Of a stretch of DNA of 64,000 bases, positions 1 through 59,606 are shown piece by piece (position 1 is the stretch's first letter; every line of letters starts with the position of its first letter). Location of the stretch: positions 186,001 to 250,000 of the forward strand of contig MU058213.1 in the NCBI GenBank assembly GCA_013265495.1, given 5' to 3'. This DNA is from Vicugna vicugna (lineage: Eukaryota). The position numbers and the translations under genes are program-made. The notes beneath the pieces are model-generated. The model did not search any database. It saw only the letters and a list, made by a program, of their open reading frames with translations, and was not told where the DNA came from.

Positions 1-3000
1 TTTTCACCCCCTTGATTAAATTTATTCCTAGGTGTTTTTTTTATGCAATTGAAAATGAGATTTTCTTAATTTTTCTGATAATTGGTTATTATATAAAATC
101 ACAACAGATTTCTGTGTGTTGATTTTATATCCTGCAACTTTACTGAATTCATTTATTAGTTTTAAGTTTTTTGGTGGAGTTGTTAGAGTTTTCTGTACAT
201 ACTTATATTATCTGCAAGTACAGAGAGGTTTACTTCTTCCTTTCCAATTTGAATGCCTTTTATTTCTTCTTGCCTGATTTCTCTGGCTAGGATTTCTGTT
301 ACTGTGTTGAATAAAAGTGCTGAGAGTGGGCATCCTTGTCCTGTTTCTGATCTTAGAGGAAAAGTTTTCAGCTTTTCACCTTTCAGTATGGTGTTAGCTG
401 TGGGCTTGTCATATATGGCCCTTATTATGTTCAGGTACCTCTCCTCCACACCCACTTTGTTGAGAGTTTTTAATCATACATGAATGTTGAACTTTGTCAA
501 ATGCTTTTTCTGCATCTGTTGATGATCGTATGGTTTTTATCCTTAATTTTGTCAATGTGGTACATCACGTTGACTGATTTGCGGATGTTGAACAATCCTT
601 GTGTTCCTGGAACAGATCCCACTTGATCCTTTAGAATTCAATTTGCTAACATTTTGTTGAGGATTTTTGCAAAGATGTTCGTTAGGCATATTGACTTGTA
701 ATTTTCTTTTTCTGATGCATCTTTATCTGATTTTGGTATCAGAGTAATAATGCTGGCCTCATAAAATTAGTCTGTGAGAGTTCCTTCCTCCTGTGTTTTG
801 GAAGAGTTTGAGAAGGATTGGTATTCATTCTTCTTTTAATGTATGGTAGAATACCAGAGAAGCCATCTGGCCATGGACTTTGGTTTGTTGTGAGATTTTT
901 GATAACTGATTCAATCCCCTTACTAGTAATTGGTCTGTTCATATTTCCTGTTACATCATAATTCAGTCTCTGTAGATTGAATATTTCTAGGAATTTCTCC
1001 ATTTCTTCTAGGCTGTCCAATTTTCAACATATAATTGTTCATAGTAGTCTCGTTTGATCCTTTGTATTTCTGTGGTACCATTGTAACTTCTTTTTTAGTT
1101 CTGATTCTGAGGGTTTTTTTTTTTTTCTGGTGAGTCTAGCTAAAGGTTTTTCAATTTTGTTTGTCTTTTGAAAGAGCCAGCTTTTAGTTTCATTATCTTC
1201 TCTATTGTCTTTTTAGTCTCTATTTAATCTATTTCCCCTCTATTATTTCTTCTACTAAATTTATTTTTCTTCTACTAACATTTGTTTCTCTTTTTTTACT
1301 TCTTTAAAGGTTAAAGTTAAGTTGTTTATTGGACTTTTTTTTGTTTCTTAATGTAGGCATTTATTGCTGTAAGATTCCCTCTTGGAACTGCATTTGCTGA
1401 ATCTCTAAGTTTTGGTAGGTTTTATTTTCATTATTATTTGTCTCAAGGTATTTTGTTGTTGTTGTTGACCTGTTTAAGTAGCATGTTGTTTTATCTCCAC
1501 GTATTTGTAAATTTTCCAGTTTTCTTCTATAGTTAATTTCTAGTTTATATCATTGTGGTCAAAAGAAGATGTTTCATATGTTTTTAATCTTCTTAAATTT
1601 GTTAAGATTTGTTTTGTAGCCTAACATATGGTCTCTCCTGGAGAATATTCCATGTGCACTTGAGAAAAATGTATATTCTATTGCTTTTGGGTGGATTTTT
1701 CCATTTATATGTGTAAGTCCATCTGGTTTAACTTGTTTTAAGGTTAAAGGTTGTTTAAAGGTTAATGTTTCCTTATTGATTTTCTACCTAGATGATCTAT
1801 CCATTGATGTAAGTAGGGTATTAAAGTTCCCTACTATTATAGTATTGCTGTCTTTTTCTTCCTTTTGGTCTGTTAATATTTGCTTTCTATATTTAAGTAC
1901 TATATCTATGTACAAATGTTACATCCTCTTGTTGAACTGACTTCTTTATCATTATGCAGTGCTCTTCTTTGTCTCTTATTACAGCTTTATTTTAAAGTCT
2001 GTTTTGTAGAGCTATCCTAGGTTTCTTTTAGTTTCCATTTGCATAGAGTATCTTTTTCCATCCCTTCAGTTTCTGTCTGTGTGTGTCCTTACATCTAAAA
2101 TGAGTCTCTGAAAGGCAAGATATACATGGATTTGGGCTTTATATTCCTTCAGTCACTCTGTGTCTGTGTCTTCTGATTGGAGACTATAGGCCATTTACAT
2201 ATAAAGTAATTATTGATAGGTAGGTACTTATTGTCATTTTGTTCATTGTTTTCTGGCCACTTTGTACTTCCTATGTACATTTCTTTTGCTCTTTTCCTTT
2301 ATGCTTGATGAATTCTGTAGTGGTACGTATAGGTGCCTTTCTCTATTGTGTATTTACTATGGGTTTTTGCTTTGTGGTTACAATGAGGCTTACATATAAC
2401 AACTTACATTTATAATGGTCTAGTTTACATTGATAGCAACTTAAATTTGAGTGTATTCTAAAGCTCTAGATTTTTTACTCTCCTCCATCATTTTATGTTT
2501 TTAATGTCACATTTTATATTTTTTACCTTTGTATCCCTTAACTAATTATTTTCGTTACTTTAACTACTTTTAACCTTCATACAAGCTTTATAAAATTAAT
2601 TCACTACTTTTATGATATTACTATATTCTGAATTTCACTATGTATTAACCTTTATCAGTAAGACTTATACTTTGATAGGGTTTCCTGTTACTAATTACCA
2701 CCATTTTCTTTTACCTTAAAGAAGTCCTTTCAACATTTCTTGTAAGGCGAGTCTGTGGTGATGAGCTCCGTTAGCTTTTGCTTATCTGGAAAACTCTATT
2801 TCTCCTTCAATTCTGAATGATAACTTACAATCAAGAATTCTCTACCCAGAAGAGTTACTTCCTTCAGAACTTTGAATATATTCTGCCACTCCCTGAAGGC
2901 CTGCAGAATTTCTGCTGAAAAATCAGCTCCTAGTATTATGGGAGTTCCCTTTTATACAAAGTTTCTTCTATTGCTGTTTTTAAGATTCTCTCCTCTTCTT

Positions 3001-3850
3001 TAGCTTTTGACATTTTAATTATAATATGTCTTGTGGCCCTCCTTGGAGTCATCTAATTTAGAACCTTCTAGGCTTCTTGGACCTTGATATGTTTCCTTCT
3101 TCTGGTTTGGAAAGCTTTCAGCCATTATTTCTTGAAATAGGGTTTCTTCCCCCTTTATCATTTCTTGGAACCTCCATAATGCAAATGTTGGTGTGCTTGA
3201 TGTTGTCCCCGTAAGTTCCTTAAGCCATTTTAACTTTTTTTTTCCATTTTTCTTTTTTTGCTCTGAGTTCCACTGCTATGTGATTGAGTTCATTGATCCT
3301 TTCTTTTGCTTCATATAATCTGCTATTGAACCCCTCTTATGCATTTTTAAAGTCAATTATCATATTCTTCAGCTCTGTGATTTCTATTTCGTACTTTAAA
3401 AAATGTTGTCTTCAAAGTTCTCACTGTGTTCATCCATTCTTCTCCCAAGTTCAGTGAGCATATTTATAACTGTTACTTTGAACTGTTTATCAGATAAAAC
3501 ACTTATCTACATTTCATTAAGGACTTTTTTTTCAGTTTTTATCTTGTTCTTTCATTTGGAATATATTCCTGTTTCTTCATTTTGCTTCACTTTCTGTGTT
3601 GGTTTCTATGCATTAGGTAAAGCAGCCACTTCTTCTGTTCTTGAAGTAGCAGCCTTGGGTAGGAGGTGAAACTTATGCTTCAGTCTTGCCTAGCTCTTAG
3701 TTGTCACGCAAACCATTGTGATCACCCAAGCAGCCTATTTTATTTGAAGCAGCTCCCAGTAGTTGAGAGTGTGCAAAGACCCATCATTGTCCCAAAGGAG
3801 AGAATCTCAGCCAGCACCTAGATTCAGGCTGAGTGGAAGTCAGATGCTCA
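1..3850 (-). mobile_element. Decayed LINE-1: 5'UTR ~3560-3850, ORF1 ~2700-3550, long inter-ORF spacer, ORF2 endonuclease/RT ~1-2240; continues past window start
   Basis: ORF 183..455 ([31 protein letters not shown]) is the L1 ORF2 RT region and 739..1020 is the ORF2 linker; T-rich plus strand; many stops and frameshifts. Confidence 0.9.
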
Positions 3851-5988: not shown

Positions 5989-6775
5989 AAAAATTTATAT
6001 CTTTTAGAATATGTTTGAACTTATGGACTCAAGCCTAAAGCAACTAGATATAGTTATGGGTCCATATACTTGAAAACCAGGGTAACCACTAATCAAAAAC
6101 ATAAAACAGGTTCACAAAAAGCAAAAAGAAGGAACTGAAGCATAAATCAATATGAAATCATCAAACCACACAAGAAAAAAAACAAAATAAGAAGGGAACA
6201 AAGAACTACAAAATCAACTGTAAACGAGGTTTAAAATGGTAATAAATACATACTTACTAATAATTACTTTAAATGTCAATGGACTAAATGTTCCAGTCAA
6301 AAAACAAAGTGGCAGAATGGGTGATAAAACAAGAGCCTACAAAAAGCTGCCTACAAAGGACCCACTTTAGGACAAAAGACACACACAGATTGAAACTGAG
6401 GGGATGACATATTTCATGCAAATAGAAATAAAAAGCAAGCAAGGATAGCAATACTCATATCGGACAAAGTAGACGTTAATACAATGAAGGCCATAAAGAC
6501 AAAGGACACAATATAATGATACAGGGATCAATACATGAAGATGTTATACTCATCAACATATATACACCCAGTATAGGAGCACCTAAATATATAAAACAAA
6601 TAGTAACACATAAAGAAACTGATGGGAATATAATAATAGTAGGAGACTGCAACAGCCCACTGACATCAATGGACAGATCTTCCAGACAGAAAATATATAC
6701 ATATAAATTAATCACTTGGCTGTACACCTGAAACTAACACAATACTGTAAATCAACTATACTGAAATTTTTTTTA
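5989..6775 (+). mobile_element. LINE-1 inter-ORF plus endonuclease fragment fused to an L1 3' terminus
   Basis: taataattactttaaatgtcaatggactaaatg (EN start); ORF 6516..6731 (NIYTPSIGAPKYIKQ...IIVGDCNSPLTSMDRSSRQKI); L1 terminus gctgtacacctgaaactaacacaatactgtaaatcaactatact at ~6718-6762. Confidence 0.85.
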
Positions 6776-9655: not shown

Positions 9656-9820
9656 GAGGAGGGCACAGCTCGGTGCTACAGCGCATGCTCAGCACGCACG
9701 AGATCCTGGGTTCAAGCCCCAGCACATCCATGAAGTAAGTAAATAAAACTAAACTTAAGAAAAATAAACTTTAAAAAAGAAGAAAATAGTAAAGCTTGCC
9801 ATTTAAAAAAAAAAAAAAAA
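9656..9820 (+). mobile_element. tRNA-Ala-derived camelid SINE (vic-1 type) with A-rich tail
   Basis: A-box/B-box-like head ggagggcacagctc...gagatcctgggttcaagccccagc followed by an A-rich tail. Confidence 0.8.
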
Positions 9821-10630
9821 GTCAAGAGCTTTTCCCCAATGTCTGTCTTGGCAATTCTGGTAACATTTAAATGCACATTTAAATGATACAGAAATTACTG
9901 TCACATTGTCCCTTCTAAGTTCTATAATCATATGATCAAAGTATTTTAAAACACAGCAAACGATGACAGAAAAAAGTTCTTATCCACAATCTCAAAATGA
10001 AAACATATAGGAAGTTTAAGTCCAAACTAAGTTCTACTGCCTCTTAAGAAGTATATAGATGTGAAAGTGCAGAGTAAGGTGCTCATGGATGCCCTCTCCC
10101 AGGTCCTGCCCACACACAAAGCCTCATCAGAATTTCTCCACTAGGTAACAAACTCAGCTACACTCGTGAAAATGACCAGCTGCAAGTTAAGGAGTTACCC
10201 TTCCCAGGACTCATTCTAATATGATTAAAGCTTTAAACTAGTATGTGGAAATCAAATCTTTAAGAGATGTTAATAATTATTTCCCAATTTAATTGCAAAA
10301 TTCCAGTTTTTTGGTGAATAACTACATCTTTAAAAATGTACATCAGCCTAATAAAAGACTGAGAAATCCACCCCTCATCCTCTCCCCCAAAAATGTCCAC
10401 CTGGCTGTGTTTAACCAAACCTCACTGGTGCTTCAAGCACTCTTGGAAGCATTATGTGGAAGAGTGGTCTTTAGGACAGCAATCTGGAAAACACTGTCTT
10501 AAAAGGAGTAATATTTAAATGGAATTGTTCATATTTTTAACTCATAAGGTTAACTTTTAATTTATGGTTAGGTTTAATTAGGTAAAATAATGATCTTATT
10601 TCTATTGAGCTCAATGAATACTTTGCACCT

Positions 10631-13600
10631 GATTTCCAGTCAAGATGGCAGAGTGGTAGGACCACGAGCTCACCTCTCCTCGCAAATACAACGAAACCAC
10701 AACTGACTGCGAGATAACCATCAAAAAAAAACAGTAGACCTAGCAGAAAAGATCTTCTGCAACAGTAAACATAAAGAGGGAACCACAGCCGGAAGGTAGG
10801 AGGGGCGTGCGCACAATATAATTGGGCCCCATACCCCTAGGGTGGGCGACCCACAAGCTGAAGGATAGTTTAGTTGCAGGGGCCCTTCCATAGGAGTGAA
10901 AGGTCTGAGCCCCACATCAGGCTCTCCAGCCCGAGGTTCCAACACTGTGGGGAGGAGGAGACCCCAGGACATCTGGTTTTGAAGGCCAGGGCTGCTTGAC
11001 TCTGAGGAGCCCCACGGGACTGGGGGAAACAGACTCCATTCGCTTGAGAAGCGTACACAGAAACTTACGTGCACCAGCAGTGATTTCATAGGAAACTGGG
11101 CCAGACCTGCCTGCTGGATTTGGAGGGTCTCCTGGGGACGTAGGGGACAGCTGCGGCTCACCCTGGGGACCTAAAAGCTAGTGGCTGACATTCAGGAGTG
11201 TTCATCTATATGAGCTTTCCTGGAGGCTGACATCTTAATTGGACCATTAGCACCAAGACCTAGCCCCACCCAGCCTGTAGGGAAGCCTCAGGCCAAACAA
11301 CATACAGGGTGGGAACACAGCCCCACCCATCAGCAGACTTCCTAAGTCACAAAGGCATCTAGACACAGCCCTACCCACCAGAGGCCCAGGACCAAACCTC
11401 ACCCAGCAGTGCGCAGGCACTGGCTCCTCCTGCCAGGAAACCTGCAAAAGCCTCTAGTCCAGCCTCGTCCACCAGAGGCAGATACTACAAACAAGAAAAC
11501 AACAATCCCAAAGCCTGTGGAAGGAATCCACATAACTGGCCAGACTCTCCACTGGGACAGGCTGGACCCTCGCCCTTGGGTGACAACTGCTGGGATGCAA
11601 AGGACGTCTCCCACAGAGGCCACCTCTCCAGGGTCAAGAAACGTAACTAACTTAACCTGAAAATAAAAAGATAGACAATATGAGGCAGCAAAAGAATATC
11701 TCCCAGGCCAAGGTACAAGATAAAATCCCAGAAGAAGTAGTAAGTGATGAGGAGATTGCCTTTCTCAGATAGATTTCCTGAGAAATAGTTTAATGATGGC
11801 CAAGATGTTCAGAGAACTCAAGAGGAGTACAGATGCACAGAGTGAAGTTTTTAGCCAAGAGTTAGAAAATACAAAGAATACCCAGAGTTGAAGAATAAAA
11901 TCACTGAAGTGAGTAACACACTAGAAGGAACCAAGAATAGACTAAATGAGGCAGAAAAACAGATCAGTGAGCTAGAAGACAGATTAGTGGAAATTACTAC
12001 TTCACAACAGAAAAAAGAAAAAAGAATGAAAAGAAATGAGGATAATTTAAAGGAACTCTGGGACAACATGAAGTGCTTTAATATTTGCATTATTGGGGTC
12101 CCAGAAAGAGGAGAGAGAGAGAAAGAACCTGAGAAAAATTTTGGAGAGATAGTCACTGAAAACTTCCCCAACTTGGGAAAGAAACAGTCACCCAAGTCCT
12201 CAAAGTGCAGAGAGTACCACACAGAATCAACCCAAAGAGGAACACACCAAGGCACATAGTCATCAAACTGACAAAAATTAAGGAAAAGGAGAAAATATTA
12301 AAATTACTAAGAGAAAAGCAACAAATAACATACAAGGGAACTCCCACAGGGTCATCAGCTGATTTTTCAGCACAAACTCTACAGGCCAGAAGCGAGTGGC
12401 ACGATGTATTTAAAGTGATGATGGGGGAAACTTACAACCAAGAATACTCTATCCAGCAAGGCTCTCGTTCAGACTTGATGGAGATATCAGAAGCTTCACA
12501 GGTAAACAAAAGCTAAAAGGTTTCAGCACCACCAAACCAGCTTTACAACAAATGTTAAAGGACCTTCTCTAGTCATCAAACCATAAGAAAAGAGAAAAGA
12601 AGAAAGAGGGAAAAAAAGAAAAAAAGAACCCTACAAAACATTGCTTTGGGCTGTTTGGGGTCTTTTGTAGTTCCTTATAAATTTTGGAATTGTCTGTTCT
12701 AGTTCTGTGAGGAATGTCGTGAGTATTTTGATGGGGGTTGTGTTGGATCTGTGGTTTGCTTTGGGGAGTGTGGCCATTTTGATAGTGTTGATTCTTCCAA
12801 GCCCAAGAGCACAAGAAATCTTTCCATTTCTTTGTGTCATTTCGGCTTTCAGAGGATAGGTAACCTCCTTGGTTAAGTTTATTTCTAGGTATTTTGTTGT
12901 TTTTGATGAAATGGAAATGTCGCTGCTAGTTATAAAATTCTGGTTTTTGAGGTGGAAAAAAGAAGTGAATGAAGGGCTGCAAATGGCAAAATGTCCTTCT
13001 TTTTTATAGGTGAATTGTATTCCATTACCTATATGTATGCTGCATCTTATTTATCTATTTCAACTACTGATGTGCACTTAGGATGTTTCCATATCTTGGC
13101 AATTGTAAATAATGTTGCTGTTAATAGCAAGGTGTATGAATCTTTCTGAATTAATTCTTATTTTGTGGTTGGCTTTATTCCTTTGATAACTATGTAAGTC
13201 TAAAAAGCTGAAGTTCTAAACCTTCTTAGAAACAATGAACAGTACATGTATGTAAATTTTAAAATATATGTGCAGTAAAAAACAAAAAAGGAAAAGAAAT
13301 GAGCTATCAAGCCATGAGAGACATGGAAGACATATTACTAAGTGAAAGAAGCCAGTCTGAAAAGGCTACAAACTGTACGATTCCAATTAAATGACATTCT
13401 GGAAAAGGCAAAGCTACAGAAACAATAAAAAGATCATGGTTTCCAGGGGTTTGGGGAGAGGGAGGGAGGAAGGGATGAATAGATGGAGCACAAGGGGCTT
13501 TTAGGGCAATGAAATTATTCTCTATGATACTATAGTGGTGGCTACATGTCACTACGCATTTGTCAAAAGCCACAGAATGTAGAACATCAAGAGTGAATCC

Positions 13601-14425
13601 TAATGTAAACTATGGATTTTGGTGATGATAATGTGCTCATGTTGGTTCATTGACTGTACCAAATATGCCACAGTGATGAGGGATGTTGAGGGTAGGGGAG
13701 TATGTATGTGTGGGTGGGGAGGGCTATGTGGGAACTCTGTATTTTCTGCTCAATTCTGCTGTGAACCTGAAACTGCTCTAAAAAAGCCTATTAAGTAAAA
13801 ATAGACTTACCATATGATCCAGCAATCCCACTCCTGGGCATAGATCCAGAAGGAACCCTACTTCATAAAGACACCTGCACCCCAATGTTCATAGCAGCAC
13901 TATTTACAGTAGCCAAGACACAGAACTAGCCTAAATGTCCATCGACAGATGACTGGATAAAGAAGTTGTGGTATATTTATATAATGGAATACTATTCAGC
14001 CATAAAATGACAACATAATGCCATTTACAGCAACATGGATGTCCCTGGAGAATGTCATTCTAAGTGAAATAAGCCAGAAAGAGAAAGAAAAGTGCCATAT
14101 ATCACTCACGTGTGGAATCTTAAAAAAAATGACAAATGAACTTAAATATAAAACAAACAGACTCACAAACAATACAAACTTGTGGTTGCCAAGGGATTTT
14201 GTAGGTGGGAAGGGACAGACTGGAAGTTTGAGATTTGTAGATACTGACAGGTATATGTAGAATAGATAAACAAGATTATACTGTATAGCACAGGGAAATA
14301 CATACAAGATCTTGTAGTAGCTCACAGGGAAAAGGAATGTATGTACATTCATATATGACTGAAAAATTGTGCTGTACACCAGAAATTGACACATTGTAAA
14401 CCAACTGTAACTCAATAAAAAAAAA
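10631..14425 (+). mobile_element. Composite L1-derived insertion (5'UTR + ORF1 + captured older DNA + young L1 3' end + poly(A)); HAL1-like
   Basis: 14-bp TSD aatactttgcacct at 10617-10630 and 14426-14439; begins with L1 5' motif caagatggc; ends with aataaaa and an A-run. Confidence 0.85.
11680..12572 (+). pseudogene. L1 ORF1 (disrupted) within the composite element
   Basis: ATG at 11680 (MRQQKNISQAKVQDK); ORFs 11888..12259 (coiled coil, NICIIGVPE) and 12205..12516 (QRVPHRINPKRNTPRHIVIKL...SADFS); TAG at 12570-12572; frameshifts present. Confidence 0.9.
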
Positions 14426-14720
14426 AATACTTTGCACCTAATTCCTTACACAGCCCTGTTAGTAGCCCCACTCTCCACACGATGTTTTCTGAATAGGAGA
14501 CAACACCAAGGTCATTCCAGCTAGCCCGATTCCTATGACCATACATACTCACCTCAGCAAGGTGGCCAGATATTCTAGTTAACTCTTAGAATTGTATTCA
14601 TTCTAAGTATTTCTCCATTTTTAACCCGTGAAAAAACATTCACTGGATTTACTGGTTAAAGCAACTCCAGGAAAGCATTCTGTCACAGTGCACTGAAAAT
14701 CGCAGACTTAACTCACTTAC

Positions 14721-15531: not shown

Positions 15532-16704
15532 CTATGGAAACAAAGTACAGCTCATGTTAGCTCAAAATCCAGCAAAATGTGGTAGAGTACACACACAGCT
15601 CTGCTACTCATATACTCCATGCATGAGCAAAGAGCACTTTTTACAAATCTAGAATAAAGAATAAGTGGTAAGAGGATTAGCTGTCATCTGTGTATTATTT
15701 GGCTAATACCCAATAATTTTTTAAAAATAGAAGATTTGGTAAAAACATGGAATTAAAGGTTATGTTTTTTAGATTATGTAACAAAGGAATAAAATATCAA
15801 GTACAGGAACTTAACCAAGCAATTTAGTTCTATTAAGGGCTCAGACAACTTTTCTGCTAATTATCTAAAATACATTTAATAAGCTTTAAATAATATTAAA
15901 TCATAATATTCAACCACTACCCAAAGAGGAAATGCTCATACTTGCCCATCTAGTCTTAGACGTGAAGGACTCCAGTCAAATTAACTTTGTCATCTAAAAT
16001 ACAAGTATCCACCTTCCTTACCACCTCTGTGCGCCCTGCCCTCATCCCAGATGAAGAGCAATTAAAAAAACAAGGTCAAAAGTGGTCCAGCAGACAATCC
16101 ACAGGTTTAAGGCTACCCAAAACAGCAGCTGAGGATGCTCCAGCACTATGGGGAGTCACCTACTGGACAGGCATGACTTTCCCTCTTGGATCAGGATGAA
16201 CAGAAATTTGGAGGTGAGGACCCAGGAGGAGGATGTCAGGCAGTTTACAATAAAATAGACATTTTTCTGTTTGGAATTATCATGGTATAGATATGGCTGA
16301 AGGCAAAAGGACACGTTGAAGATTATTTCCATTTCTGTAAAAACTTTATGATCCAGTCTATAGTGTACTAATTTAAAATATCTGGTGTCATATGCATAAT
16401 TAAGAACACGTATAGAGGCTAGAAAAGAAAACTAAGATCGGAAGTTCTGCACAGAACAGCACCACCTTCTGCCCCCTCCATGTGTCCCAACCCCACCAAG
16501 CACAGATGTGCTTGTCCACATCACCACGTATTCTAACATGGTTTGCATGAATGAATGAAGTGGACTCCTGCGACTGGTTGTTTTGTGGTCTAGTAGGCAA
16601 CATTCTGCAGCAAACTGGCAACATGGAATCTGCTGGTATTTAATACAGTACGTCAAATGAACCACTATTAAACTCTATCATTAAGAAGTTAAGAGTCTTC
16701 CAGC

Positions 16705-16817
16705 AACCTATAGTGAAAAGGAATATGCCTGTGTACACGTATGACGGAAACACTGTGCTGTACACCAGAAATTGACACTCACTGTAAACTGACTATACCT
16801 CAATGGAAAAAAAAAAG
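16705..16817 (+). mobile_element. Short 5'-truncated L1 3' end
   Basis: tgtgctgtacaccagaaattgacac...tgtaaactgactatac plus an A-run, the same terminus type as at 54840-54890. Confidence 0.8.
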
Positions 16818-23433: not shown

Positions 23434-24161
23434 TGACCCGCGTTCTGCCTGGGGAAACAGCCATGTAGACCATCCCTCTCAGTTTTCGCTTTCCTAAGTG
23501 AAATAGAATTCATTTTTCTTTTCTCATAGATTTTCTTGCCAAATTTGTAATCACATCTGACACTACCCTGATCACTCTCCAAGCTGCCTGTTACCTCGTT
23601 AAACAGCCAAATGGATTAAAACCATCTAGATCTGTGCACCCCTCATTTTACAATGAAGAGATCATTTTAAGTTCTGAAGTGACTCTCTCCCAAATTTCTG
23701 ATTCTTCTTGAACCCTGTGTGGCATTACATTGCTAACATATTTAGCTTAAAAACCACCACGCAATGTAGAATCTCTTCCTTACTGTGTAAAAGCAAACTT
23801 CCTTCACCTTGTATTTGGTATTTCTGTAATTTAATCTCTCTCACGAAATTATCCTGAATTTGGTGCTCCTACAGTTTATCCTGTCCGTTTCTAAATGCTA
23901 AATAAATAAAAATGTTTTCAAAGGTTTATGCTGAATTTTCAAATAAACGATATTTAGAGAATCGTAACATAGAGTATACTCATTTATACATTAAATTCCC
24001 CAAACCATCCATCACAATGTTATTACATGTAAAAGCCCAATGGCAAATATGATAAAGGAGGTACCAACTTTACTTGATTACACAGGATTTATCAAGGGAC
24101 CTATGTTGTTTCACTGTTATGAAATAAAAACTGTAAGTTTTTATCTTAAAAAAATTATCAA

Positions 24162-24246
24162 GGGGTGGGTATAGCTCAGCGGCAGAGCACATGCTTAGCA
24201 TGCACAAGGACCTGGGTTCAATCCCCAGTACCTCCATTAACAAAAA
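24162..24246 (+). mobile_element. tRNA-Ala-derived camelid SINE (vic-1 type)
   Basis: ggggtgggtatagctcagcggcagagcacatgcttagcatgcacaaggacctgggttcaatccccagtacctcc. Confidence 0.88.
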
Positions 24247-24381
24247 GTTCTTTGTGGTTTGGTAAATTATTACCTATGATGTATGAAAGATAGTAAGTTC
24301 TAACCAAAAGTAAATTTCAAATAAATCAAGCACTGGCTTCATTAGAAATGTTCATGAAAACTAAACAAAGATTACAAGATA

Positions 24382-24438
24382 CTGGATTTGGCACAAAATT
24401 GTAAAATGACTATAACTCAATAAAAAAATGTTAAAAAA
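24382..24438 (+). mobile_element. 57-bp L1 3'-terminal insertion
   Basis: ttgtaaaatgactataactcaataaaaaaatgttaaaaaa flanked by 11-bp TSD attacaagata (24371-24381, 24439-24449). Confidence 0.85.
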
Positions 24439-24465
24439 ATTACAAGATAGATTTTTTTTAAATAC

Positions 24466-39501: not shown

Positions 39502-40838
39502 ACTTTTCAGCAAATGGTGTTGGGAAAACTAGACAGCAGCATGTAAATCAACGGAGCTAGAACACTCCCTTACACCATACACAAAAATAAACTCAAAATG
39601 GATTAAAGACTTAAACATAAGACAAGATACAATAAACCTCCTAGAAGAAAATATAGGCAAAACATTATCTGACATGCATCTCAAAAATGTTCTCCTAGGA
39701 CAGTCTCCTCAAGCAATAGAAATAAAAGCAAGAATAAACAAATGGGACCTAATGAAACTTACAAGCTTCTGCACAGCAAAGGAAACCATAAGTAAAACAA
39801 AAAGACAACCTACGGAATGGGAGAAAATTTTTGCAAATGAAACCAACAAAGGCTTGATCACCAGAATATATAAGCAGCTCATACGGCTTAATAAGAAAAA
39901 AATACAAACAACCCAACCCAAAAATGGGCAGAAGACCTAAACAAGCAATTCTCCAAGGAAAAAATACAAATGATCAATAGGCACATGAAAAAATGTTCAA
40001 TATCACTAATTATCAGAAAATGCAAATCAAAACGACAATGAGGTATCACCTCACACCAGTCAGAATGGCCATCATTCAAAAATCCACAAATGACAAATGC
40101 TGGAGAGGCTGTGAAGAAAAGGGAACCCTCTTACACTGCTGGTGGGAATGCAGTTTGATACAGCCACTGTGGAAAACAGTATGGAGACTCCTCAAAAGAC
40201 TAGGAACAGACTTACCACATGACCCAGGAATTCCACTCCTGGGCATATATCCAGAAGGAACCCTACTTCAGAATGACACCTGCACCCCAATGTTCATAGC
40301 AGCACTATTTACAGTAGTGCTGACATGGAAACAGCTTAAATGTCCATCAACAGACAACTGGATAAAGAAGCTGTGGTATATTTATATAATGGAATACTAC
40401 TCAGCCATAAAAACCGACAACATAACGCCATTTGCAGCAACATGGATGTTCCTGGAGAATGTCATTCTAAGTGAAGTAAGCCAGAAAGAGAAAGAAAAAT
40501 ACCATATGAGATCACTCATATGTGGAATCTAAAAAAAAAAACATAAATAGAAAACAGAAACAGACACAGACTGATAGACATAAAACACAAACTTGCAGTT
40601 GCCAAGGGGGCAGGGGATGCGAAGGGATAGACTGGGATTTCAAAACGTAGAATAGATAAACAAGATTATACTGTATAGCACAGGGAAATATATACAAGAT
40701 CTTATGGTAGCTCACAGTGAAAAAAAAGTGACAATGAATATATATATGTTCATGTATAACTGAAAAATTGTGCTCTACACTGGAATTTGACACAACATTG
40801 TAAAATTATTATAAATCAACAAAAAATGTTAAAAAAAA
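39502..40838 (+). mobile_element. Young 5'-truncated LINE-1 (ORF2 C-terminus, 3'UTR, A-tail)
   Basis: ORF 39993..40532 ([11 protein letters not shown]...CWRGC...HCWWEC...) is the ORF2 C-terminal Cys-rich domain; TSD agtatttgc at 39493-39501 and 40839-40847. Confidence 0.93.
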
Positions 40839-40899
40839 AGTATTTGCCAACCTTAAAGGAAGACAATAACTTTTCCAGAAGTAAGAAAAATGCTTATTT

Positions 40900-41325
40900 T
40901 TATTTTTTCTTTTTTAATTGAAGTATTGTTGATTTACATTATGTTAGTTTCAGGTGTACAGCATAGTGATTCAGTATTTTTATAGATTATATTCCCTTGA
41001 AAGTTATTACAAAATAGTGGCTATATTTCCCTGTGCTATAAAATGTATCCTTATTGCTTATCTATTTTATACTTTGTAGTTTGCATCTCTTAATTCCATA
41101 CCCTGATCTTACCCCTCCTCCCTTTCCTCTTTCATCCCACTGGTAAACCACTAGTTTGTTCTCTGCATCTGTGAGTCTGTTTCTGTTTTGTTACACACAT
41201 TAGTTTTGTTTTTAAGATTCCACATATAAGTAATAACATAAAGCATTTATCTTTCTGTCTGACTTACTTCACTAAGCATAATACTCCCTAGGTCCATCCA
41301 CATTGTCGTAAATGACAGAATCTCA
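40900..41325 (-). mobile_element. L1 3' end (older artiodactyl-type subfamily)
   Basis: ttgaagtattgttgatttac...gtttcaggtgtacagcatagtgattcag...agattccacatataagt. Confidence 0.85.
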
Positions 41326-52252: not shown

Positions 52253-54360
52253 CTAAATAAGAAATACCAAAATAACAAGCTTCAGAACTAATAAAAAATT
52301 TTTTTCACATACTCACATATTTATTCATTCAGCAAAAAATTTTCAAACAGAAAAAAATGATAAAAGAATTTCATCATTCAGGATTTCATAATATAAAATT
52401 CTAAATACAAGACCATTAAAAGGATACACAAATCCAAAATATCTTTTTCCCAAATGTATTTTCTTTTTCCCCCCGCAAAAACAGACACACTGAAACTAAA
52501 TCATTAGAAAGAAAGATATTTGAATATCAAGCCACTCATATGTACGTACACACCCCAAACTTATCAACAGTGAAAGCTCCGGTCCAGTTCAAGTATCTTG
52601 GCCTGTGTACGTGGGTGCTGTCTGACAGTGCCACTTGCTTGCAGACCATGTGCTTCAGTACTGGACACTGCTCTGGCCAAAGAGCTACATATCACTTCAA
52701 AGCAAGCTCTAAACTTGAGAGTTCCCTCTACCTTCAGTGCCTTGGTTAAAAAGACTTTAAAACTCTTTTTGGTATATGGCAAACTCTTTCTTGTCACGGT
52801 AAAAGACTGACAGAGATCTACGCTGTATTTAGAGGCAACAAAATGGGGTTCAGCAACACTCTCCATGAGTTTATCCATAGTTGAACCACTGACAACACTT
52901 TACTCCACTTGGAGCAGGTGAAGAGGAAACATAAGAGAAGTGAACCACGTGGAGTGATGTCAGACAGTGGGAATGCTGCTGGGAAGAACCCAGCGCATCC
53001 CAGGACAGAAGCCAGGCTAGCTGAAGGAACCATCTAAATGAACCTTTTGGAAACAAAGAAATGTCTGAGGCCAATGTTCTGACAGCCACATTACAACACA
53101 GGACTCTCAGTGCTATAAGAACATCAATATTACCACATGTGATTTTTTTCATTAACTACTATATAGATTTCCCATATAGTTTAAAACTTTTCTAACAATT
53201 ACTGCTTCCCAACAGTTCCTTTAGAAAGTATAAAAAACTATTACAACCATTTTGAATAATAATCTTAAATCTTTTAAATTCCCCATTGCTAACATTTATA
53301 TACAATGTGTTTGAAATCGTATCACAAAATCGATGTAACATGTCTTAACTGTCACTATAAATTTAGGGGGAAAATGGAAAAAATTTAATAACGTCAATTT
53401 GTATTTTTTCAGAATCTAAAAAGTAGATTCATTTTCTCACTATGTAAGTCTCTGATTTAAGAAAAAACTGCTACTTGAAATAATTACAAAAAAACTGATG
53501 CTTTGCTTTAGAAATTGCTATTATATGGCAATGCAAAATGCACTTTTGCTGATATGAAATTTTTATTATAAAATAACAATATAAAATATACTATATTCTA
53601 AACCCTTAAATGAATTTTTTAAACTGAAGTATAGTTAGTTTACAATGTTGTGTCAATTTCTGCTGTACAGCACAATGTTTCAGCCATACATGTGACATTT
53701 TTTAATTGAAGTATAGTTGACTTACAATGTTGTGTTATGAAATTTGACTAATTAAATTTTGGCGTGATTAAAAGGAAACAAAAAAACAGATAGGCTTGTC
53801 AGGGGAATGCGGTTAAGAAAGAAGATTAAGAGAGCAGCGAATATTTGTAAACCTAACTATTAGAGGTGAAAAGGCATTAGGAAGAAGGAAAAAAATAGGG
53901 GCACCAACAGACATTTATTTTCACTTGCCTTCCAACGGCAGACTATTCTTTGTAATCAATCTTTGCTCTTCTCAGCTTGTCTATCTATATGCTAGCTACT
54001 TAAGTTTTTCCCTAAAAAATGTTCCCAGGACCATCACCTACAAGATCAGTCACTTTTCTCAGCTCCAGTGTTTTAACTATATCATAGGGAAAATGGAATT
54101 TGACAAAGCTTATAAATTTGAGGTGTTTTGGAACTCCCTAGACAATATAGACAATTGTCATTAAGTGATTCAGTACCATCTGACCATTATTTAAATCTAA
54201 AATTTGAAAGAACTTGAAGATACCATTTTTAACCTTTTCCAAAAGGCACAGATCATTTAAAACAATGAGTTGAGTTTTGGCATCATCAAACTTTGGTTTT
54301 GGGAATGTAAATGAGCAGTCTTTCTGAAGGTAGCAACACTTATCAAGAAGAATTTTCAAG

Positions 54361-54911
54361 ATACATGCACTCCAATGTTCATAGCAGCACTATTTTCAAT
54401 AGCCAAGACATGGAAACAACCTAAATGTCCATCCACAGATGACTGGATAAAGAAGATGTGGAATACTACTCAGCCATAAAAAAGAACAAAATAATGCCAT
54501 TTGCTGCAACATAGATGGACCTGGAGATCGTCATTCTAAGTGAAGCCAGAAAGAGAAAGAAAAATACCATATGATATTACTTATAGACACAAGTGAACTT
54601 ATTTACAAAATAGAAACAGACTCACAGACATAGAAAACAAACTTACAGTTACCAGGCGGGGAAGGAGGTAGGAAGCGATAAACTCAGGATTCAAGATTTA
54701 CAGATACTTACTAGTATATATAAAATACATAAACAAGTTTCTGTATAGCATAGGGAACTGTATTCAATATCTTATAGTAACCAATAATGAAAAAGAATAT
54801 GAAAATGAATATATGTATGAATATGTATGACTGAAACATTGTGCTATACACCAGAAATTGACAACACTGTAAACTATACTTCAGTATAAAAATTTTGCTC
54901 TCTTAAGAGTT
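54361..54911 (+). mobile_element. 5'-truncated L1 3' end
   Basis: ORF2 end plus 3'UTR; TSD aagaattttcaag (54348-54360) / aagaattctcaag (54912-54924), one mismatch. Confidence 0.88.
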
Positions 54912-55159
54912 AAGAATTCTCAAGCCCTTTGATTCAGTAATTTCATTACTAGAAAATTAATAGGAGGAAATAATCAGATACATAAACATTTTTATATGCA
55001 AGGTTATAAAGTCATTCATTAACAATGACAATTCAAATGGGAAAAAATCTCAGCAAAAGTTATATTTTTAGAAAAAATAAAGGGCTGGTTAGATGAAATA
55101 TAGTTTAAAAACATGACAGAATAGTAGACAGCAGTTTAGAATCATATTTTCAAAGAACA

Positions 55160-56182
55160 AGCCTTTGTCAGTTTCATCGTTTGCAAAAATTTTCTCCCAT
55201 TCCATAGGTTGTCATTTTGTTTTACTTATGGTTTCCTTTGCTGTGCAGAAGCTTGTAAGTTTAAGTCCCATTTGTTTATTCTTGCTTTTATTTCTATTGC
55301 TTGGGTAGACTGCCCTAGAACATTTTTGAGATGTATATGAGATAATGTTTCGCCTGTTCTCCTCTAGGAGGTTTATTGTCTCTTGTCTTATGTTTAAGTC
55401 TTTGATCCATTTTTGAATTTACTTTTGTGTATGGTGTAAGGGAGTGTTCTAGCTTCATTGATTTACATGCTGCTGTCCAGTTTTCCCAACACCATTTGCT
55501 AAAGAGACTGTCTTTATTCCATTGTGTATTCTTGCCTCCTTTGTCGAAGATTAGTTGACCAAAAGTTTGTGGGTTCATTTCTGGGCTCTCTATTCTGTTC
55601 CATTGGTCTATATGTCTGTTTTTGTACCAGTACCATGCTGTCTTGATGACTGTAGCTCTATAGTATTGTCTGAAGTCTGGGAGAGTTATTCCTCCAGCCT
55701 CTTTCTTTTTCTTCAGTAATGCTTTGGCAATTCTAGGTCTTCTGTGGTTCCATACACATTTTATTATGATTTGTTCTAGTTCTGTGAAATGTGTCCTGGG
55801 TGATTTGATAGGGATTGCAATAAATCTGTAGATTGCCTAGGGCAGTATGACCATTTTAACAATATTGATTCTTCCAATCCAGGAACGTGGAATATCTTTT
55901 CATTTTTTTAAAGTCTTCTTAATTTCCTTCATCAATGGTTTATAGTTTTCCATGTATAGGTCTTTCACCTCCTTGGTTAGATTTATTCCTAGGCATTTTA
56001 TTACTTTGGGTGCTATTTTAAAGGGGATTGTTTCTTTACTTTCTTTTTCTGTTGATTCCTCACTAGTGTAAAGAAATGCAACTGATTTTTGAACGTTAAT
56101 CTTGTAACCTGCTACCTTGCTGAATTCTTTGATTAGTGCTAGTAGTTTTTGTGTGGACCTTTTAGGGTTTTCTATATATAGT
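55160..56182 (-). mobile_element. Internal L1 ORF2 fragment with no 3'UTR or poly(A)
   Basis: ORF 55315..55578 ([26 protein letters not shown]); nearly identical to the young L1 at 39502 where they overlap. Confidence 0.9.
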
Positions 56183-56400: not shown

Positions 56401-56538
56401 TAAAAAAAAATTTTTTTGTTCTTTTTTTAGGGAAGGGGGAGGGTAATTAGGTTTATTTATTTATTTAACTGAGGATTGAACCCAGGACCCCGTGCATGCT
56501 AAGCACGTATTCTACCACTGAGCTGTACCCTCCCCTCC
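56401..56538 (-). mobile_element. tRNA-Ala-derived camelid SINE (vic-1 type)
   Basis: reverse strand reads gggtacagctcagtggtagaatacgtgcttagcatgcacggggtcctgggttcaatcc; TSD aggtcacttt at 56390-56399 and 56544-56553. Confidence 0.88.
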
Positions 56539-58847: not shown

Positions 58848-59606
58848 TGCGGGGGGCCACTCATGACCTGAGGGCTGCCGAGCACAGAAACTGGGCCTAA
58901 ACTCCCAGAGTGCGGGGCGCCAGGCTCTGAGGTTGGGACTGCCGAGCACAGAAACTGGGCCTAAACTCCCAGAGTGCGGGGCGTCAGGCTCTAAGGCTGA
59001 CTGAGCAAAGACAATCTCTGTCCCGCCACCCCTTTGTTAGAAAAACAGCAGGTGCATTTGGAGTCAGAAAAACATCTTGATGCCATTGAGTTATTAAGAA
59101 CAGGGGCTTCTGGAAAGAGAGATACAGGTCACACAAGTTAGTGATCTTAGTAACAATCACCTGAGTTACCAATACACAAGTTACATAAGTTAGTGATCTT
59201 AGTGACAATCACCTGAGTTACCAATACACAAATCACGATGTTAGCCTAGAGGAACAATAACAGTTATCAATGATGTTAACTCATGGGGAACCGTTAGTCT
59301 TGATTGATGAGAAATATAAACAATAATGATGTATGTAACTATGCACAAGTTACTGATTTTAGTACACATTGTTAAGAGATCATAAAAACAATCCGTTACC
59401 TACGATACTGTTGCCTATGGGTTAAAAGCATATAAATTAACTGCTGGAAATAAACACGAGGTCCACTCTTGACCTAGCGTCTTGCGGGCTAGAGTGAGAC
59501 CCTCTCCCCCAGCTTTTAGTCTTGTCTTCCTTTTAGTCTTGTCTTTCTTTTCTCAGTCCTGCAGCACAGATTTCTGGACCTGATCGATTGTCGGCTGGCT
59601 CCGACA
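58848..59606 (+). mobile_element. Solo LTR (759 bp), ERV2/betaretrovirus-like, inserted into a MIR
   Basis: TG...CA ends; 6-bp TSD ccccct at 58842-58847 and 59607-59612; TATAAA at 59431-59436 and AATAAA at 59449-59454; internal tandem duplications. Confidence 0.88.

Follow-up and report, generated by a model that had tools for sequence, protein, structure and literature searches.

The region analyzed here is a window of 64 kb from the genome of Vicugna vicugna (contig MU058213.1, positions 186,001 to 250,000), in which positions 10617-14439 are occupied by a mosaic of largely L1-derived segments enclosed by a perfect duplication. A camelid source of the DNA is also suggested by a tRNA-Ala SINE. 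The exact 14-bp repeat AATACTTTGCACCT occurs twice in the entire window, at 10617-10630 and at 14426-14439 (both on the plus strand), its identity does not extend to 15 nt, and it is the only repeat of at least 8 nt that is common to the two 120-nt end zones. A chance repeat was rejected on the basis of this end-zone comparison, and the proposal of the initial annotation that a 14-bp target-site duplication (TSD) surrounds 3.8 kb of inserted DNA is thereby confirmed. The 3' copy of the TSD is preceded by the hexamer AATAAA at 14414 and a subsequent A-run, of which nine A residues lie outside of the TSD. The context of the bottom-strand nick, TATT/CA, is two changes away from TTTT/AA, the consensus of L1 endonuclease nick sites (PMC2912911). 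From the TSD to the older of two 3' ends, the core of the element measures 3,173 nt, and a younger tail of 636 nt follows.

The head of the element consists of a leader and a broken ORF1. Positions 10631-11679 of the plus strand show the composition of an L1-type, GC-rich 5'UTR with partly decayed CpG dinucleotides, with 54% GC and a CpG observed/expected ratio of 0.27, compared to 34% GC and a ratio of 0.08 in the left flank. The motif CAAGATGGC, for which 0.32 matches per window would be expected by chance, is found at 10641, i.e., 11 nt inside the element, and is presumed to be a YY1 site. This segment had been described as a complete-looking L1 5'UTR; its L1-type, GC-rich character is borne out by composition and motif, and the leader is presumably complete. 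ORF1 extends from ATG to TAG at 11680-12572 (plus strand) and its earlier assignment to L1 is supported by the Pfam domains Tnp_22_trimer (E = 1.5e-5) and Transposase_22 (E = 1.2e-14) as well as by matches to human ORF1p structures in the PDB (E = 6e-22). The sequence is interrupted by stops and frameshifts. As stop codons are present in all three frames, ORF1 of the present copy is dead, and a functional ORF1 at 11680-12572 is ruled out.

The element was previously stated to lack an EN/RT coding region. The decisive observation in this respect is one of size: the stop codon of ORF1 and the start of the tail are only about 1.2 kb apart, which leaves no room for an EN/RT core, and ORF2 in sense orientation is found in the element from aa ~1164 only. 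In agreement with this, a Pfam search for EN and RT yielded no matches in any of 12 read-through frames covering the leader and the 3' half. The same search recovered RVT_1 in one of three frames of a control L1 of the window and gave no EN match for it, so that the scan has to be considered weak for EN.

The DNA between ORF1 and the tail (12573-13789) is a patchwork. It begins with an A-rich spacer at 12573-12639 (plus strand), which has a similar, shorter counterpart in the second copy described below and is likely the inter-ORF spacer of the presumed L1 parent, cut before the ORF2 start. Two decayed antisense ORF2 fragments had been noted downstream, and both were recovered on the minus strand by comparison with human ORF2p. 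Scrap 1 (12640-12925) corresponds to aa 757-859 and carries a deletion of eight codons, and scrap 2 (12976-13153) starts at aa ~1189, with a protein match to aa 1189-1218 and a DNA match over 12976-13153. A short spacer at 12926-12975 separates the two. Read along the minus strand, scrap 2, which represents the later part of ORF2, precedes scrap 1; therefore, the scraps cannot be one inverted L1 segment. A twin-primed, 5'-inverted L1 was rejected as well, as the scraps are internal and non-collinear and as the identity between scrap 2 and the tail of the element itself is no higher than 71.7%. Three L1 tails of the window align well with scrap 2, at 69-77% identity, and the window L1 at 55.7 kb matches scrap 1 at 73% identity. 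In comparison, identities of 80-86% are seen among the three closer window L1 tails (a fourth shows 71-76% identity to these three), which makes the scraps look old.

The remainder of the patchwork comprises AT-rich DNA (13154-13289, 26% GC), for which just one match of 27 nt, A-rich in composition, was found elsewhere in the 64-kb window, and a block at 13290-13789 (plus strand) that is similar to the 3' end of an old L1. The block is a putative L1MC-type 3' end, to which its resemblance is good. Its first 43 codons did not yield a match in the PDB, and it terminates without AATAAA or ATTAAA and with two A residues before the young tail. A search of 12600-14500 against Rfam returned a single sub-threshold match, to mir-6130 (25.9 bits at a cut-off of 117), which was set aside.

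Evidence for a second copy of this arrangement came from a protein search in which a single minus-strand frame served as the query. The best of nine matches, P0001, is a protein of 149 aa that corresponds to a chance open frame on a separate contig of 1,027 bp and forms a single-member cluster without an accession. Its frame crosses, in this order, scrap 2, the spacer, scrap 1 and the A-rich spacer, terminates in the region of the ORF1 stop codon and spans the same three junctions as the element of the window. The two share 106 of 125 aa over three frame segments and differ by at least three frame changes. Among 271 proteins from the matches listed in a search with P0001 (the best 120 of 1,274) and in a representative search (the best 150 of 1,528), P0001 alone spans the junctions, and no second junction-spanning protein was detected; over the spacer at 12926-12975 it reaches scores of 57 and 47, followed by 30 and 29 for the next proteins in this set. 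In addition, two motifs of scrap 1 are separated by 6 residues in both the window element and P0001, whereas among the 64 ORF2 fragments in which both motifs occur, 53 have a spacing of 14 residues (207 of the 271 proteins were left out of this count, as one motif is missing). The deletion of eight codons is thus a derived character that is common to the two copies.

According to simulation, the 19 amino acid differences correspond to a DNA divergence of about 7%, and 19 or more differences would arise with a probability of 0.0005 at a divergence of 3% and of 0.01 at 4%. Living camelids differ from each other by about 3-4% of their DNA or less. As the divergence of about 7% exceeds this value, P0001 is likely a paralogue of the window element. 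The presence of the same junctions and of the same deletion in a copy of this divergence leads to the conclusion that the middle predates the insertion in the window and is common to another copy, as anticipated by the claim that it had been copied along with the rest of the element. This conclusion is based on one independent copy, seen as protein and covering about 460 nt. Scans of the collections viral_contigs, metagenome_contigs and genome_contigs did not return a match, and no second ORF1 copy of the family was retrieved from viral_contigs or genome_contigs; these collections are microbial and the empty scans consequently carry little weight. In a search of sequencing runs, 19 of the 24 runs listed, from seven studies, contained a fraction of 0.56-0.63 of 524 words taken from the locus, where the flanks alone could account for 0.24 and a multi-copy family of 3.5% divergence for up to ~0.25, so that these fractions speak neither for nor against sharing of the insertion.

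The 3' end of the element is formed by a younger, 5'-truncated L1 at 13790-14425 (plus strand), which was identified by protein and DNA matches and comprises the terminal part of ORF2, the 3'UTR, the AATAAA hexamer and the A-run. It had been described as closely matching 40205-40838 of the window. The match is real, and “closely” is somewhat generous, as the two tails are 88.1% identical with gaps set aside and 79% identical with gaps counted. Changes were polarised by comparison with three further L1 tails, in an alignment in which one outgroup row is misaligned over its first ~50 columns. In 302 columns, 10 private changes were assigned to the tail (15 if five unpolarised changes are added) and 22 to the copy at 40205. 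The resulting private change of 3-5% is to be compared with about 3.5% expected from half of the divergence between the window element and P0001; hence, tail and core look equally old, on the small counts available for this age match. The scraps are much older than the tail: their identity to window L1s (69-77%) as opposed to the low private change of the tail indicates that middle and tail were gained at different times. A single read-through source had been proposed for both. The part of this proposal that concerns the joint copying of the middle is retained, and the acquisition of middle and tail in one step is at odds with their differing ages.

The join between the old and the young tail reads CTATT/AAGTAAAAATAGAC, and its two A residues can be supplied by either side. 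The tail thus starts at a TT/AA step with an overlap of 2 nt, at which a TSD of its own would be indistinguishable from A-runs. Neither AATAAA nor ATTAAA is present between 13424 and 14414. A protein search across this junction did not identify a spanning match among 23 candidates at E ≤ 10, and none was found in viral_contigs, which contain virtually no sequence from this animal. The 636-nt tail may accordingly mark a late subfamily, a one-off chimera or a nested insertion.

L1 derivatives that retain ORF1 and lack ORF2 are known as HAL1 (“half-L1”). They encode ORF1p alone and arose several times independently (PMC5753468, PMC13756887), and they are described as possessing a poly(A) tail and TSDs and as depending on full L1s (PMC5322556), a dependence that is graded as likely elsewhere (PMC4161310); mobilization in trans is discussed for them in PMC5322556 and PMC3627910. 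Named examples include human HAL1 and HAL1b, rat RNHAL1, pig HAL1_Ssc, bat HAL1-3_ML and guinea-pig HAL1 (PMC5753468, PMC5322556, PMC2241872, PMC6501411, PMC6726744, PMC3627910). About 7,500 copies are reported for the rat (PMC2241872), an entry exists for the pig (PMC6501411), ORF1 of the guinea-pig element stayed coding for a long time (PMC3627910), and a domesticated HAL1b is the subject of a separate study (PMC7586669). HAL1 has also been classed with HeT-A and Ag-Sponge as bipartite non-autonomous LINEs with an ORF1 (PMC5786205). For camelids, an alpaca casein study lists an L1-2_Vpa entry and a 73-bp match to HAL1-3_ML (PMC6726744), and term searches of main texts did not retrieve a camelid HAL1 by name. 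A survey of camelid transposable elements, in the main text of which the term “ORF1” is absent, identified non-LTR elements by their RT (PMC8605555) and would therefore likely miss an ORF1-only family.

The window element shares with these HAL1s the restriction to an L1 5'UTR and an ORF1 homologue, the absence of the ORF2 core (EN and RT), the poly(A) tail and the TSD, and the presence of more than one copy of the ORF2-less structure, the latter on the evidence of one outside copy that is likely paralogous. It differs in that ORF1 is dead in the copy at hand, and possibly in its 3' half, which consists of two antisense scraps followed by an old and a younger L1 3' end; in the papers cited, the 3' anatomy of HAL1 is not given at such detail. 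The bipartite LINEs, as characterized in PMC5786205, likewise retain both terminal parts of a LINE, 5' and 3', and have lost the middle. In the window element, however, the middle is replaced by older DNA instead of being just deleted, and the two ends likely stem from different L1 copies.

These observations are most readily combined in a reading that we consider moderately probable, in which the locus is a dead, TSD-bounded, ORF1-only derivative of L1, shares its middle with P0001, was inserted from a single RNA by an enzyme that an intact L1 supplied, and inherited a tail that had been gained late. In this scenario, a founder L1 would have lost everything past the inter-ORF spacer, so that it read into old DNA, namely the two antisense L1 scraps, the AT-rich DNA and the old L1 3' end. 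With promoter and ORF1 retained, the founder could have spread as a HAL1-type family to which ORF2p was supplied in trans, and the element likely relied on the copying enzyme of intact L1s. Late in the life of the family, a 5'-truncated young L1 would have been added to one source copy, at the TT/AA in which the old tail of that copy ended. Transcripts of this copy would then have continued as far as the AATAAA provided by the new tail, because no polyadenylation hexamer was left at the old end. The locus at 10617-14439 would represent a full-length daughter of this tailed source copy. Inheritance of the tail from such a source is favored because the A-run at the join is almost gone and the ages of tail and core match, and also because a rare one-off would be improbable in a copy that was selected by its core.

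The tail could also have been added at the locus itself. An ordinary HAL1 of 3.17 kb would then have made the TSD and, soon after, a 5'-truncated young L1 would have entered its poly(A) at TT/AAAA, leaving an all-A duplication that is no longer visible. The join CTATT/AA is indeed an endonuclease-type site, and truncated L1s are often associated with short TSDs at TT/AAAA and with 5' microhomology (PMC2912911). We nevertheless regard this course of events as unlikely, as only two A residues are present at the 5' side of the tail, in comparison with nine outside of the TSD at the 3' end, as, within error, the core does not exceed the tail in age, and as such insertions should be rare among copies. 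The single TSD, the equal apparent ages and the AA microhomology at the join would also fit a one-off chimera, in which reverse transcription began on the RNA of a young L1 and continued, after a change of template, from the 3' end of a HAL1 RNA. If this second template was polyadenylated, more than the two A residues observed should have been left by the jump, and this origin is considered rather improbable. It is highly improbable that no family exists and that the locus goes back to one full-length L1 that lost its ORF2 and was then patched in place, with P0001 as the same locus in a relative: a single other copy was seen and the limited share of locus words in the best runs listed points to the existence of somewhat distant relatives, but P0001 is about 7% diverged with at least three frame changes, and scraps of 69-77% identity do not fit a young L1 that had been repaired from its own sequence.

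The preferred reading of a mobilized ORF1-only element with an inherited tail can be extended, as a tentative and at present rather doubtful proposal, to a camelid HAL1 family that is uncatalogued and mosaic in its 3' half, that stayed mobile by recruiting the 3' end of an L1 active at the time, and that comprises one subfamily carrying the 636-nt tail and one lacking it.

Irrespective of the origin of the tail, 10617-14439 is a real element and a member of the known HAL1 kind; since HAL1s are known and arose repeatedly, this kind is not new. The locus contributes to it a copy that is full-length, has a perfect TSD and carries an additional, younger tail. With a correct consensus, the five to six repeat calls into which each copy in this lineage is wrongly split would be united. 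Situated next to ORF1, the old scraps are neutral passengers and would, given many copies, provide a built-in clock for selection on ORF1. If the subfamily with the borrowed tail is real, it would leave the textbook mechanism unchanged and would illustrate the way in which 3' ends are renewed in such elements, as a datable 3'-end replacement in a non-autonomous, ORF1-only element.

An older, ordinary L1 on the minus strand occupies positions 1-3464 of the window. Its ORF1 (3464-2717) shares 65.6% identity with that of the HAL1-type element, an ORF1-only L1 derivative, in the window self-comparison, and roughly 480 nt of inter-ORF sequence separate it from the ORF2 start, which exhibits an EN-like N-terminus and an RVT_1 match. 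The same self-comparison revealed an inverted pair at 1779-2315 and 6154-6694 (66% identity), which identifies a second old ORF2 5' region, situated on the plus strand.

Further L1 portions were located by self-comparison. Within 39503-41317, a plus-strand L1 3' portion (39503-40838) lies tail-to-tail with the 3' end of an older L1 on the minus strand (40906-41317). The region 54345-56180 begins with an L1 tail on the plus strand (54345-54917), after which come ORF2 pieces on the minus strand (55155-56180); parts of these pieces share 89-97% identity with 39503-39859. At 16696-16815 and 24381-24439 lie very short fragments of L1 3' ends that are related to the tail of the HAL1-type element.

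Positions 58848-58999 hold a GC-rich tandem repeat whose unit measures 64 nt and whose copies show 94% similarity. Three short repeats (9658-9734, 24161-24240 and 56447-56536) proved mutually related in the self-comparison, and ARAGORN called 24165-24236 as tRNA-Ala. These repeats likely represent a tRNA-Ala SINE; a SINE family of this kind is known in camelids.
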